NCBI GenBank assembly: GCA_964457385.1
Contig: CAYWGW010000002.1
Location: forward strand, 1,883-65,882
Direction: 5' to 3'
From: an uncultured Spirochaetaceae bacterium
GTDB taxonomy: Bacteria > Myxococcota_A > UBA9160 > UBA4427
DNA length: 64,000 nucleotides
This document shows positions 6,035-53,788 of the stretch, piece after piece. A program made the position numbers and the translations under genes. Each line of letters starts with the position of its first letter. The first letter of the stretch is position 1. A model generated the notes under the pieces. The model was given only the letters and a program-made list of their open reading frames with translations. It was not told the DNA's origin and searched no databases.

Positions 6035-7351
6035 ATGAACGTCACGGTGATTGGAACGGGCTACGTGGGACTGGTGACGGGGGCCTGCTTCTCGGAGTTC
6101 GGTGTCCAGGTGACCTGTGTCGACAAGCTCGAAGAGAAGATCGAGGCGCTCCGCCGCGGCGAGATCCCGATCTACGAGCCCGGCCTGGACGAGCTGGTCG
6201 CCCGAAACGTGCGGGCCGAACGACTCTCCTTCACCACCGATCTGGACGAGGCCGTCGCCAACGGGCTGGTGCTCTTCGTTGCCGTGGGGACCCCCGCCAC
6301 GAGTGACGGCAGTACCGATCTGAGCTTCGTCGAGTCCGCGGCGCGGGAGATCGGCCAGCGGCTGGATGGCTACAAGGTGATCGTCACCAAGAGCACCGTG
6401 CCCGTCGGGACTGCGGACAGGGTTCGGGGCTGGGTCCAGGAGGAGCTCGACGCGCGCGGGGTCCGGATCCGCTTCAGCGTGGCCTCGAATCCGGAGTTCC
6501 TGCGCGAGGGCGCGGCGATCGGCGACTTCATGCGCCCGGATCGCGTCGTGATCGGCACGGACGAGGGGGACGACCATGCCAAGGCGATCCTCAAGGACCT
6601 GTATCGGCCCCTCTACCTGAACGAGACGCCTTTCGTAGAGACCGACGTGCGCACCGCCGAGCTCGCGAAATACGCGGGCAACGCCTTCCTGGCGACCAAG
6701 ATCTCCTTCATCAACGAGATGTCGATGATCTGCGAGGAGGTCGGGGGCGACGTCCAGGCGATTGCTCGCGCGATGGGACTCGATCAGCGGATCGGGAAGA
6801 AGTTCCTGCACGCCGGTCCGGGCTTCGGCGGATCCTGCTTCCCGAAGGATACCCGTTCCGCGGTTCATTTTGCTCGGGAGCTGGGCCTCGAGCTGTCGAT
6901 CGTCGAGGCGGCGATCGCGGCCAACACACGTCAGCGGCTCCGCATGATCGACAAGATCGCCGCGGCCCTCGACGGTGCGGTCGACGGCAAGTCGATCGCC
7001 GTACTCGGTCTGGCATTCAAGCCCGAGACCAACGACATGCGCGAGGCGCCTTCGATCGACATCATCCGCGGGCTGCTGGATCGCGGGGCCCGGATCCGCG
7101 CCTTCGATCCGGCCGCGATGGCGGAGGCCGGCCGACTGATTCCCGAGATGACGCTCTGCAAGGATGCCTACGAGGCCTGCCAGGATGCCGATGCGCTCGT
7201 GATCATCACGGAGTGGAACCAGTTCCGGATGCTCGACCTCGGACGGGTGAAGGAACGACTGGCGGAGCCCCGGATGATCGATCTGCGAAACGTCTATGGG
7301 CGCGAGCGCATGGAGGCGGCCGGCTTCCTCTACTGGGGAGTGGGCTGCTGA
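6035..7351 (+). CDS. ugd: UDP-glucose 6-dehydrogenase
   Basis: MNVTVIGTGYVGLVTGACF Rossmann start, GGSCFPKD catalytic Cys motif, full length about 438 aa. GGAGGA lies upstream of ATG 6035. Confidence 0.9.
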   Translation: MNVTVIGTGYVGLVTGACFSEFGVQVTCVDKLEEKIEALRRGEIPIYEPGLDELVARNVRAERLSFTTDLDEAVANGLVLFVAVGTPATSDGSTDLSFVESAAREIGQRLDGYKVIVTKSTVPVGTADRVRGWVQEELDARGVRIRFSVASNPEFLREGAAIGDFMRPDRVVIGTDEGDDHAKAILKDLYRPLYLNETPFVETDVRTAELAKYAGNAFLATKISFINEMSMICEEVGGDVQAIARAMGLDQRIGKKFLHAGPGFGGSCFPKDTRSAVHFARELGLELSIVEAAIAANTRQRLRMIDKIAAALDGAVDGKSIAVLGLAFKPETNDMREAPSIDIIRGLLDRGARIRAFDPAAMAEAGRLIPEMTLCKDAYEACQDADALVIITEWNQFRMLDLGRVKERLAEPRMIDLRNVYGRERMEAAGFLYWGVGC

Positions 7352-48545: not shown

Positions 48546-49087
48546 ATCCCGTGAATCCGGCTGCCGGATGCCTCTGGATTCCTTCTGGAGCAGTTCGGCT
48601 GCTCGCGGCCGGCGTCCTTGCGGCCGGCGTCATGCTCGCCTGCGTTGGTGCGGTCGACTCGCAGTGGGGCGCCTCGATTCCCGAAGAGCGGATCGAGGAA
48701 GGGCTCGTGGACCTGCCGCCGAAGGCACGTGCAGAGCTGTTGCCTCTCTCGAAGATATTCTACGAGCGGATCACGAGTCGCCGATTCAACTCGCGTGCGA
48801 CCTTCGAGGATCCCAGTATCCGCCAGTTCTTCCCCAGTCTGGCGGCCTACTCGGATTACTACGCCGGCCTGGTCGATGCATTGGATCGGGCTCATATCCG
48901 CTACACGAGACCGGATCGGGTCTCGCTGCTCGATCTCGAGTCGATCGACGGCAGCTCACTGCGGCTCGAGCTTCGCTTCGTGGGGGAAAACGATCTTCCG
49001 CTGCGCTTCTGGCGCGCGACCCTCGAGCGCGCCGACGAATGGCAATGGCGTGATGGACGCTGGTGGGTCGTGCCCGGAAAGATCTGA
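48542..49087 (+). CDS. Hypothetical lipoprotein
   Basis: GTG 48542 overlaps the ppdK stop. Signal and lipobox are LLAAGVLAAGVMLAC. The mature part of about 150 aa has no domain I recognise. Confidence 0.5.
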   Translation: MNPVNPAAGCLWIPSGAVRLLAAGVLAAGVMLACVGAVDSQWGASIPEERIEEGLVDLPPKARAELLPLSKIFYERITSRRFNSRATFEDPSIRQFFPSLAAYSDYYAGLVDALDRAHIRYTRPDRVSLLDLESIDGSSLRLELRFVGENDLPLRFWRATLERADEWQWRDGRWWVVPGKI

Positions 49088-49291
49088 TCAGCTCATCGTG
49101 TTCTGGCCAGGCCGGTCGGAAAGGCGGCGTCCCCGGGTCTCCCGGTCCGGGCGGCGTGGGAAGTCCACCGGTCCGGGACGGAACTATTTTACCCATACGG
49201 TCTCGGAGGGCGTGGCTGGCCGTTGCCGGTCGATCGGGTCGTGGCTCGTGAATTCAGGCTCTTGGCCGGGCCTTTGCGCATCTTCGGAAGA

Positions 49292-49307
49292 TGGCACGCC
49301 GATTGCG
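49292..49307 (+). promoter_or_regulatory. Sigma-54 (-24/-12) promoter candidate TGGCACGCCGATTGCG upstream of the ECF sigma gene
   Basis: It matches TGGCACG-N4-TTGCW at every core position except the last W. It sits in a 427-nt non-coding gap about 210 nt upstream of the ECF sigma start. Confidence 0.55.
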
Positions 49308-49514
49308 TTTGCATGTGGTGTCCCGGTCGATCCGGGTCGACTTTTCGAGAAGCCCATAGCTCGGTGAGAGACGAGCGGGATCGGTTCGGAGCTGGCGAAG
49401 GCATCGAGTGGGAGTTCAGGGCCCCGCTCATCGATGATGCCGAGCCAATGGATTCCGGACACTGGCGCTGACGGCGTCTCCCGCACGACCTCCGCCGAAT
49501 AGAGGAAGAGAGCC

Positions 49515-50147
49515 GTGCAGGAAAGCCGAAGCCCGAGCCCGAACGCCACCCAGCGTGGGGCGAGCAAGCGAGTGACGTCGAAAGCGTGGGAGTCGGATCG
49601 GGAGCTCGTCGATCAGATCCTGGCCGGAAGTCGGCCCCATTTCGATCTGCTCTACGAAACCTACTTCCCACGCGTCTATCGATTCGCGTTGAAAAGGCTC
49701 GGAGATCCGGGTGAGGCGGAGGACGTCGCACAGGAGGTCTTCCTGACGCTGATGACCGCGCTGGCCTCCTTCAAGGGTGAGTCCTCGCTGCTGGTCTGGG
49801 TCTTCGGCGTGACCCGGAACAAGGTGAACCGGCGGTTCCGCCGACCGCGTCCGCGACTCGAGCCTCTCGAGGAGGGCGGGGCGCTGGAGATCCAGGCGGT
49901 CGACCCGCCGACGGATGAGACGCTCGACGCGAAGCGTGTTCTTCGCCGCTGCGAGGCCGTCATCGCCGAGGATCTGACGCCCCTGCAGCGGCGCATCTTC
50001 GACCTGAAGCATTGCCGACAGCAACCGATCCGAGCCATCGCCACGGCGCTCGGCAAGAGCGAGGACGCCGTCAAAGCGAATCTCTATCGGATGCGGCGAG
50101 CGATCTCCGCAGGCACCCCAGGGCTGGAAGCGATCCTTCGCGGTTGA
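49515..50147 (+). CDS. ECF-family RNA polymerase sigma-70 factor
   Basis: Region 2 is FDLLYETYFPRVYRFALKRLGDPGEAEDVAQEVFL...WVFGVTRNKVNRRFRR. Region 4 is LTPLQRRIFDLKHCRQQPIRAIATALGKSEDAVKANLYRMRRAI. GTG 49572 is an alternative start. Confidence 0.85.
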   Translation: MQESRSPSPNATQRGASKRVTSKAWESDRELVDQILAGSRPHFDLLYETYFPRVYRFALKRLGDPGEAEDVAQEVFLTLMTALASFKGESSLLVWVFGVTRNKVNRRFRRPRPRLEPLEEGGALEIQAVDPPTDETLDAKRVLRRCEAVIAEDLTPLQRRIFDLKHCRQQPIRAIATALGKSEDAVKANLYRMRRAISAGTPGLEAILRG

Positions 50148-50210
50148 TCCGCTCCCGGTGCGCCCGCCAGGGCGACCTGGGAGCCGCGAGGGATGAACTC
50201 GGTCGTTGCG

Positions 50211-50238
50211 GCGAGGACGAGAGAATTCTCGTCCTCGC
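50211..50238 (+). terminator. Perfect 11-bp stem-loop (GCGAGGACGAG-agaatt-CTCGTCCTCGC) downstream of the ECF sigma gene
   Basis: It lies 64 nt after the sigma stop and is extendable to about 14 bp. A second 6-bp hairpin (CTGACA...TGTCAG) follows at 50241-50262. There is no U tract. Confidence 0.45.
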
Positions 50239-50379
50239 TGCTGACACATGCTTGACTGTCAGACCACTCAGAGGAAAGCAGCGTCATTTTCTCCCCTGGG
50301 GTTTTTCGGGGAGGGGATAATGCGCGCAGCCTGTCGGCCCGGATCCGTGCGTCCGGGAGGCGTAGCGACGGGAGGTCCG

Positions 50380-50751
50380 ATGAGTGTGGCGCGGGGCAGG
50401 TGCTGGCGGGGGCTGTTCCAGTGGTGGAAGCCGTCGCAGCGGTCGGGACCCCGGGACGATACGACGACTGGGCCCGACGAAACGAGTTCTACCGACCGAT
50501 CTCCCGGTACCGCGTACGGCATGGGATCCTTCGAATCGGGCTATCCCGGGCCCGCTTCGGAGGCGCTCGTACCAGATGCGCGGATGTATTCGTGGGTGGG
50601 CGACTACGAGTCGACGGAGGCCGAGCTCGCGGAGTTTCTGGCCTGTGATCTGGAATCGACCGAGGCGGATCCCCGCTTCAGGGAAGAGCTGCGGGAGCAG
50701 CTCTGGACTCTGGTCGAGGAAGGCGAGCTCCTCCGACGCCGCGATCATTAG
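50380..50751 (+). CDS. Hypothetical small protein with an acidic helical C terminus
   Basis: ATG 50380 has GGGAGG 4 nt upstream, and third-position GC rises downstream of it. ATG 50320 is an alternative start. There is no TM segment and no zinc anti-sigma motif. Confidence 0.4.
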   Translation: MSVARGRCWRGLFQWWKPSQRSGPRDDTTTGPDETSSTDRSPGTAYGMGSFESGYPGPASEALVPDARMYSWVGDYESTEAELAEFLACDLESTEADPRFREELREQLWTLVEEGELLRRRDH

Positions 50752-52764: not shown

Positions 52765-52840
52765 TGGCGCTCCCAACGGGACTCGAACCCGTGTTTCAGC
52801 CTTGAGAGGGCCGCGTCCTAGGCCACTAGACGATGGGAGC
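52765..52840 (-). tRNA. tRNA-Glu (anticodon CUC)
   Basis: The reverse complement is GCTCCCATCGTCTAGTGGCCTAGGACGCGGCCCTCTCAAGGCTGAAACACGGGTTCGAGTCCCGTTGGGAGCGCCA. It folds by hand into a full cloverleaf with a 7-bp acceptor stem, a GG-containing D loop, anticodon loop CU-CUC-AA, T loop TTCGAGT and encoded CCA. Confidence 0.9.
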
Positions 52841-53129: not shown

Positions 53130-53145
53130 TGGCATGGGTGTTGCT
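53130..53145 (+). promoter_or_regulatory. Sigma-54 (-24/-12) promoter candidate TGGCATGGGTGTTGCT upstream of pilA
   Basis: TGGCAT-N5-TTGCT has exact GG-N10-GC spacing and sits 77 nt upstream of the pilA ATG. pilA is sigma-54/PilR dependent in M. xanthus and P. aeruginosa. Confidence 0.6.
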
Positions 53146-53221: not shown

Positions 53222-53788
53222 ATGGGCATTCGGAATCGACGGTCGCGAGGCTTCACGTTGGTCGAGCTGATGATCGTGGTCGCGATCATCGGGGTGCTCG
53301 CGTCGATCGCGATCCCCTCCTTCGTAAACTACCAGCTCACCTCCAAGCGCGCCGAGGCCTTCGCCAATCTGAGTTCGCTGGCGAAGGCGCAGAAGAGCTA
53401 CTTCGCCGAGTTCAACACGTTCATAGACGTGCTTTCCGAGCCGTTGGGTGGACTGGGCGTGCCTCCGACCACGGTGAAGCGGGACAAGACGCCGATCGAC
53501 GCGGCCTTCGCCCAGGTCGGTTGGACGCCGGACGGCGACGTCTTTTTCGACTATGACACCACGACCCCGGACACTGGAAGCGGATGCGTCTGTGACGGCT
53601 GCTTCACTGCCGCGGCCTATGGCGATCTCGACGGGGACAACAACCTCTCGGTTGTGCTCTACGCGCATCCCGATTCGGCTGGCAATACCTGCTTGACACC
53701 ACTGGGTGGAAATCAAGCGCCGCCGCTCAACAAGGCCGGCGACCCAATACTCGATCAGCCGGTCCGCGCCGGCGCGGACGACTTCTGA
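53222..53788 (+). CDS. pilA: Type IV pilin (PilA-like)
   Basis: Class III signal peptide MGIRNRRSRG/FTLVELMIVVAIIGVLASIAIP, with Glu at +5 and four Cys in the C-terminal half. GGGAGG lies upstream of ATG 53222. Confidence 0.9.
   Translation: MGIRNRRSRGFTLVELMIVVAIIGVLASIAIPSFVNYQLTSKRAEAFANLSSLAKAQKSYFAEFNTFIDVLSEPLGGLGVPPTTVKRDKTPIDAAFAQVGWTPDGDVFFDYDTTTPDTGSGCVCDGCFTAAAYGDLDGDNNLSVVLYAHPDSAGNTCLTPLGGNQAPPLNKAGDPILDQPVRAGADDF

Follow-up and report, generated by a model that had tools for sequence, protein, structure and literature searches.

The gene hrpL of Pseudomonas syringae, which encodes an extracytoplasmic function (ECF) sigma factor of group ECF32, is transcribed from a sigma-54 promoter that is activated by HrpRS (PMC8999054; PMC5263251). 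A comparable arrangement is proposed here for a stretch of 64,000 nucleotides (nt) of contig CAYWGW010000002.1 (assembly GCA_964457385.1), hereafter the window, from an uncultured bacterium that GTDB places in Myxococcota_A. An element of the -24/-12 type, located at 49292-49307 of the window upstream of an ECF sigma factor gene, very probably is a functional sigma-54 (RpoN) promoter that transcribes this gene through a structured leader, under an enhancer-binding protein (EBP) bound to a conserved dyad. This reading is built on the sequence elements themselves, their conservation, their fixed geometry across about 70 lineages and the covariation of the leader RNA.

The -24/-12 element and its conservation

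The element, TGGCACGCCGATTGCG, carries the GG of its -24 part at 49293-49294 and the GC of its -12 part at 49305-49306 with a spacing of exactly 10 nt, and it agrees with TGGCACG-N4-TTGCW at 11 of the 12 specified positions. It is non-coding and oriented toward the downstream ECF sigma gene. A first-pass annotation of the window had reported a match at all core positions, within a 427-nt gap of poor third-position GC; the coordinates and the sequence were found to be exact, with the final W, occupied by G, as the sole mismatch. The gap was borne out as well and is non-coding. Its GC content at third codon positions is flat over the frames (0.67/0.70/0.57 versus 0.79/0.69/0.48 in the ECF gene), and gene callers predict no gene in the same gap of close relatives. 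The upstream neighbour of the gap is a hypothetical gene of 178-230 amino acids (aa), which ends at 49087.

The exact string TGGCAC-N5-TTGC occurs once in 64 kb, and this occurrence is the 49292 site. Sites that agree with the consensus at 11 or more of 12 positions number two in the window, against 0.255 expected from dinucleotide-preserving shuffles of the same 64 kb, of which 22.5% contained at least one. Both sites are intergenic, and each is directed at the next gene. Zero 11/12 sites lie in the coding DNA of the 64-kb window, so that the frequent, equally good matches in coding DNA of which the first-pass annotation had warned were not encountered.

The decisive evidence comes from relatives. 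Orthologous loci were collected from species-representative genomes (at least 6), from metagenomes (80) and from the closest relatives (7, with 96-98% protein identity), and conservation was counted over the 74 non-redundant loci whose upstream sequence is 450 nt or longer. TGGCA[CT]-N5-NTGC was found upstream of the sigma gene, on the coding strand, in 71 of these 74 loci, and the promoter is present in 72 when L112 with its CGGCAC variant is counted; the opposite strand and the 600-nt gene bodies gave 0 occurrences each, and 0.375 were expected from shuffles. The consensus over all loci, TGGCAC-N5-TTGCT, is the canonical sigma-54 consensus. Since the intergenic DNA around the promoter is largely unalignable between clades, the element is kept by selection and not by shared ancestry, and its conservation in relatives makes a chance occurrence untenable. 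Judged by these patterns, the -24/-12 element has the behaviour of a sigma-54 promoter under selection, placed before the ECF sigma gene.

Loci L114 and L120 (67-70% protein identity) have no promoter, dyad or leader, and their upstream region is unrelated; the promoter may have been replaced in this lineage. In many related loci, a short (T)TGCAC(A)T block was also observed at about -22 to -14 before TGGC, with an information peak at -18 to -15. The window has it at 49274-49281 (TTGCGCAT), and no second GG-N10-GC promoter is formed by the block.

The downstream gene encodes an ECF (group 4) sigma factor with regions 2 and 4 only, which scores 89.7 bits against TIGR02937 (sigma70-ECF; cutoff 42.9). 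No specific family threshold was reached, the best 25 of 74 NCBIfam matches being generic or sub-threshold, with no equivalog cutoff attained, and an exact protein look-up found the window sigma sequence not on record. Its orthologues are 62-98% identical and all come from metagenomes and metagenome-assembled genomes of uncultured Myxococcota/'Deltaproteobacteria'. The GTG-CAG start ('VQ') and a GAGGAA ribosome-binding site are conserved across the clade.

Upstream elements and the putative activator

An expectation-maximisation (EM) motif search, which covered 230 nt upstream of the promoter across the loci, returned the motif CAcAAnGGGAAAAnnnnTTCtC, whose start lies 119-124 nt before TGGC in nearly all loci and whose core is the dyad GGGAA-N5/6-TTCCC. 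Perfect palindromes were seen in several loci, such as GGGAAA-N3/4-TTTCCC and GAGGAACGATCGTTCCTC, and 59 of 71 loci have a dyad with at most 2 mismatches between -128 and -100, versus 2.15 in shuffles. On either side of the main site, at a distance of about 21 nt, the relatives show smaller dyad peaks, which points to tandem sites spaced by two helical turns. The 2-mismatch dyad of the window precedes TGGC by 113 nt, which puts it at about -139 relative to the predicted start, and 21 nt farther upstream stands GGGAAG, a possible distal half-site of a tandem activator site. From its conservation and its position about 80-150 nt upstream, the dyad likely fits a candidate enhancer for a bacterial EBP. 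To our knowledge, GGGAA-N5/6-TTCCC matches none of the EBP sites of NtrC, NifA, DctD, XylR or LuxO.

Between the dyad and the promoter lies a sequence that resembles a binding site for integration host factor (IHF). Among 72 loci of relatives, matches to WATCAANNNNTTR with at most 1 mismatch number 15 at -45 to -36 from TGGC and 3 elsewhere. The dyad, the putative bend site and the -24/-12 core together appear to form the standard architecture of an enhancer-dependent promoter.

The activator itself was searched for by its signatures. Neither GAFTGA and its variants, nor a GESGTGKE-type Walker A, nor a Walker B signature of an EBP was found in the six frames of the window, and no RpoN-box signature was found in any frame. 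Furthermore, a scan of 86 related loci yielded no GAFTGA-type signature in a plausible coding context at up to about 3 kb from the sigma gene; three GAFSGS matches in related loci were considered as EBP genes and rejected, as they are surrounded by stop codons. The activator is presumably encoded elsewhere in the genome, and Myxococcota carry unusually many EBPs (PMC12316311).

The transcript leader

The predicted transcript begins with a leader of about 197 nt, the first 165 nt or so of which fold into a conserved multi-helix structure. The most widespread part is HP1, a GC-rich hairpin that is found in all clades 14-17 nt past TTGC; outside the window it has a 6-bp stem (for example GGGAC/GTCCC, GGGTG/CACCC or CCCGGG/CCGGGC) and mostly a GNRA tetraloop. 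Directly 3' of HP1, about 35-50 nt after TGGC, ACTTTTGAAAAGCC is kept even in distant clades that are without the remaining leader; its possible roles are those of a pause or terminator-like signal, a binding site for a protein or a partner in RNA pairing. The leader from HP2 through P3/P4 is confined to the window's own clade (sigma identity of about 77% or more), and in a distant clade the covariance model search did not find it.

Six helices make up the leader, of which five covary and one is nearly invariant. The loop of the apical hairpin, AGUUCAGGGA, is near-invariant, and a second CAGGGAG motif lies in the 3' junction. In an unbiased MAFFT alignment, 87.6% of the cells are paired, a share that falls to 25-47% once the partners are displaced by 1-3 columns; compensatory changes were seen in 23 of the 35 pairs, and the observed covariation was reached by 0 of 500 shuffles. 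In the model-fitted alignment, the paired cells rise to 92.1% and the compensatory pairs to 27 of 35. The window's own minimum-energy fold reproduces the stack (z = -2.15), and a covariance model built from the clade recovered the element in 29 loci, including L084 and L095 from outside the training set. Neither the window nor any of ten related loci gave an Rfam 15 match, with E values of up to 1-5 admitted. Based on the pairing and covariation, the structure of the leader is, with high probability, itself real.

Two further candidates within the leader were rejected. A conserved upstream open reading frame was not upheld, since the recurring ATG after P4 belongs to the P3a stem (GAUGC) and the peptides downstream of it are unconserved; a CUUUUG-CAAAAG pairing was dropped because its second segment is unconserved in the window's subclade.

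The leader has two GGA-containing motifs, one of which is located in a hairpin loop, and their likeness to the sites of CsrA targets is a speculation. A tentative possibility is that the leader represents an undescribed class of structured cis-regulatory RNA, which would gate the translation or stability of the ECF sigma mRNA via a small molecule or a GGA-recognising protein. If this were true, the ECF sigma would be under two-layer control, by an enhancer-dependent promoter and by an RNA switch.

Table 1. Features of the sigma-54/ECF locus and related sites, in coordinates of the window.
Feature	Position	Strand	Basis or remark
Intergenic gap, 427 nt	49088-49514		between the hypothetical gene ending at 49087 and the ECF sigma gene
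Repeat copy 1, 15 nt, GTCTCCCGGTCCGGG	49137-49151 (CCGGTCCGGG core 49142-49151)	+	repeat search
GGGAAG, possible distal half-site of a tandem activator site	49158-49163	+	invariant in the five closest loci
Repeat copy 2, 15 nt, GTCCACCGGTCCGGG	49163-49177 (CCGGTCCGGG core 49168-49177)	+	repeat search
Candidate enhancer (upstream activating sequence) dyad CGGAACTATTTTACC, CGGAA-CTATT-TTACC	49179-49193	+	motif search and dyad count
IHF-like site ATTCAGGCTCTTG	49252-49264	+	2 mismatches to WATCAANNNNTTR; between dyad and promoter
Putative sigma-54 (-24/-12) promoter TGGCACGCCGATTGCG, TGGCACG-CCGA-TTGC-G	49292-49307	+	sequence match, kept in 71-72 of 74 orthologous loci
Structured leader	49315-49481	+	covariance model, 110 bits, E = 5e-24; sole copy in the window
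Predicted transcription start	~49318	+	about 12 nt past the -12 GC; from standard sigma-54 promoter geometry
Hairpin HP1, CCCGG-TCGAT-CCGGG	49322-49336	+	conserved hairpin
Conserved linker ACTTTTCGAGAAGCCC	49340-49355	+	relatives' form ACTTTTGAAAAGCC, containing the palindrome CTTTTGAAAAG
Hairpin HP2, GCTCG-GTGAGAGA-CGAGC	49359-49376	+	alignment-based structure
Long-range helix P3, GUUCGG with CCGGAC	49384-49460 (49384-49389 with 49455-49460)	+	RNAalifold
Helix P3a, GGCAUC with GAUGCC	49400-49405 with 49436-49441	+	RNAalifold; enclosed by P3
Helix P4, near-invariant loop AGUUCAGGGC	49406-49412 with 49423-49429	+	RNAalifold; enclosed by P3
Ribosome-binding site GAGGAAG	49502-49508	+	before the conserved GTG-CAG start
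ECF sigma factor gene, 210 aa	49515-50147	+	Pfam Sigma70_r2 and r4_2
Second sigma-54-type site TGGCATGGGTGTTGCT	53130-53145	+	only other 11/12 match in the window

Proposed cascade, alternatives and known systems

A mechanism is proposed in which sigma-54 holoenzyme would rest on the -24 GG and the -12 GC as a closed complex, while an AAA+ enhancer-binding activator, encoded elsewhere, would bind the dyad and probably a second half-site about 21 nt farther upstream, near 49158. DNA looping, probably aided by an IHF-type bend near 49252-49264, would bring the activator to the promoter and lead to the open complex. Transcription would start near 49318 and produce the leader of about 197 nt, which probably exerts post-transcriptional control, on stability or translation, before the GTG is reached. 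The ECF sigma would thus be controlled mainly through its synthesis, at the lower end of a sigma-54-to-ECF cascade.

Several points weigh against this reading. The promoter match in this single window is not significant by itself, the base that follows TTGC in it is G and not A/T, and the orthologous loci L114 and L120 are without the promoter. The window's dyad is among the weaker copies, with 2 mismatches and an EM score of 10.4 as compared with about 20 typically, and its IHF-like site is weak as well, with 2 mismatches to WATCAANNNNTTR. No rpoN or EBP signature is found in the window, nor an EBP signature within about 3 kb of the sigma gene in relatives. Finally, a leader of 197 nt leaves room for further, unrecognised promoters.

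The window alone would leave some room for a functionless chance match, given that 64 kb should contain 0.255 such sites by chance and that 22.5% of the shuffles had at least one; 71 of 74 loci against the 0.375 expected, the strand specificity and the fixed geometry to two other conserved elements effectively refute this explanation, whose probability is practically nil. A different enhancer is the next point to be weighed. The first-pass annotation had proposed two copies of the 10-mer CCGGTCCGGG, 26 nt apart, as a plausible EBP-binding site of a real promoter, and these copies are present at exactly the positions it gave. They reach 15 nt, with 87% identity between GTCTCCCGGTCCGGG and GTCCACCGGTCCGGG; they are near-palindromic and stand 115-150 nt upstream, a typical enhancer distance, and GGTC(C)GGG survives in part among the closest relatives. 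However, in the relatives with a 96-98% identical sigma the pair is not a repeat, as the counterpart of copy 1 is CC-GTTCGGG or CC-GGTCGGG and that of copy 2, only partly conserved, is GTGGTCCAGG or GTGGTCCGGG, and no counterpart was found in more distant relatives. The 10-mer has 5 copies in the window versus 0.65 expected, and such a repeat turns up in about 5% of Markov-1 random regions of the same composition; it is real in the window sequence but only marginally non-random. What is conserved at a fixed distance is the adjacent dyad, which stands on the 3' side of copy 2 and is separated from it by a single base (A 49178). The CCGGTCCGGG repeats are no part of the conserved design, and as the enhancer they are quite improbable. 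From the cascade drawn in the first-pass annotation, the promoter and the step from sigma-54 to the ECF gene are supported by 71 of 74 loci but the repeats as enhancer are not, and its remark on the absence of an EBP gene from the window was upheld by the six-frame signature scan. The other three exact CCGGTCCGGG copies were found at 6813, 27483 and 50992 (-), the 10-mer being an over-represented GC-rich word in the window.

ECF sigma genes are commonly autoregulated, and the conserved GGAAC-containing element might in that case be the -35 box of an ECF-type autoregulatory promoter and not an enhancer. In fact, GGAAC/GGAAT followed by TCTCG 16 nt on is present in the window and its two closest relatives. 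No conserved -10-like element is seen 16-17 nt downstream across the 71 loci, however, and the dyad symmetry, the perfect palindromes and the side copies at a distance of about 21 nt are in keeping with a DNA-binding protein that acts as a dimer; GGAAC...TCTCG was rejected as an autoregulatory promoter on these grounds, and the explanation is held to be highly improbable. An explanation that is simply unlikely is that the promoter mainly makes a short or stand-alone non-coding RNA while the ECF gene is transcribed largely from another promoter. HP1 with ACUUUU behind it has the look of a weak terminator or pause site, and no other transcribed element is so widely conserved; the leader, too, is an autonomous covarying structure. 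However, the U-run is only 4 nt long and lies 3-4 nt away from the stem, only about 35 nt separate the end of the structure from the GTG, and promoter and gene always co-occur. A consensus scan of 48800-50400 found no terminator-like or sigma-70-like site, hence none between the promoter and the gene, and in distant relatives the coding region begins about 70-100 nt after the promoter. Because no terminator or sigma-70 site intervenes and the distance is so short in distant relatives, transcription of the ECF gene most likely starts from the sigma-54 promoter and runs through the leader.

The genes upstream of the locus encode RecO, a class II aminoacyl-tRNA synthetase, pyruvate phosphate dikinase (PPDK) and a 178-aa hypothetical protein, and those downstream encode a 128-aa hypothetical protein, a PEMT/ICMT-like methyltransferase and RNase T. 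Directly 3' of the ECF sigma gene, an acidic protein of 124-128 aa is encoded in all close relatives (50365-50751, +, in the window), for which no Pfam/NCBIfam match, obvious membrane segment or zinc-finger anti-sigma motif was found. It may or may not represent an unconventional anti-sigma factor; a downstream protein without a recognisable anti-sigma domain fits an ECF sigma controlled via its synthesis, which is not a proof.

The second sigma-54-type site, TGGCATGGGTGTTGCT, precedes a pilA-like type IV pilin gene (53222-53788) by about 77 nt, counted to its ATG at 53222. The product of this gene has the N-methyl domain and matches the Myxococcus PilA model in part, and the site is kept identical in the relative L161, at 9616. 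The gene pilA is a classic sigma-54/PilR target, and an 11/12 site before a pilA-like gene indicates that the sigma-54 promoter class is in use in this organism; with the abundance of EBPs in the phylum, it lends indirect support to an RpoN encoded by this genome. The window thereby resembles the sigma-54/PilR promoters of pilA in Myxococcus xanthus and Pseudomonas aeruginosa, which likewise have a -24/-12 site before the pilin gene; this site belongs to another gene, however, lacks GGGAA-N5/6-TTCCC at the equivalent distance and presumably answers to another activator. A tRNA-Glu gene (anticodon CTC) was noted at 52765-52840 (-), between the neighbourhood of the ECF sigma gene and the pilin gene.

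Like the canonical IHF-loop sigma-54 promoters, among them glnHp2, nifH and Pu, the locus has a TGGCAC-N5-TTGC core and, at a distance of over 100 nt on its upstream side, a dyad, with a putative IHF-like site (WATCAANNNNTTR) in the space between, but the target of the window promoter is a sigma factor gene. The leader is like the cis-regulatory leaders of Rfam in being a multi-helix 5' untranslated region with covariation, an invariant apical loop and conserved junctions, but it matches no Rfam 15 family, which makes it a separate candidate for a new regulatory RNA motif. A full-text literature search on Myxococcus, sigma-54 and ECF returned no report of such an arrangement, and ECF sigma genes are unmentioned in a 2025 survey of sigma-54 regulons.

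The closest likeness is to hrpL of Pseudomonas syringae and Erwinia, in which an ECF sigma gene likewise stands behind a -24/-12 promoter with an upstream activator site and is controlled via its synthesis, and no recognisable anti-sigma domain adjoins the window sigma gene. The differences are that the window lineage is an uncultured Myxococcota, with other gene neighbours and without a type III secretion context, that EBP genes of the hrpR/hrpS kind are not adjacent to the sigma gene in the window or the 86 related loci scanned, and that the window sigma mRNA has a predicted structured leader of 165 nt, of which we know no hrpL counterpart. Because the EBP genes are non-adjacent and the genomic context is different, the locus is not filed under the hrpL/ECF32 family, although by analogy its cascade would work like that of hrpL. 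What emerges is a well-supported, conserved ECF sigma, apparently wired below sigma-54 and an EBP outside the gamma-proteobacterial hrpL paradigm, with defined parts (promoter, candidate enhancer dyad, IHF-like site and structured leader) and in a widespread but uncultured group of marine and sediment Myxococcota. In conclusion, a sigma-54/EBP-to-ECF cascade of the hrpL type is predicted for a new lineage.

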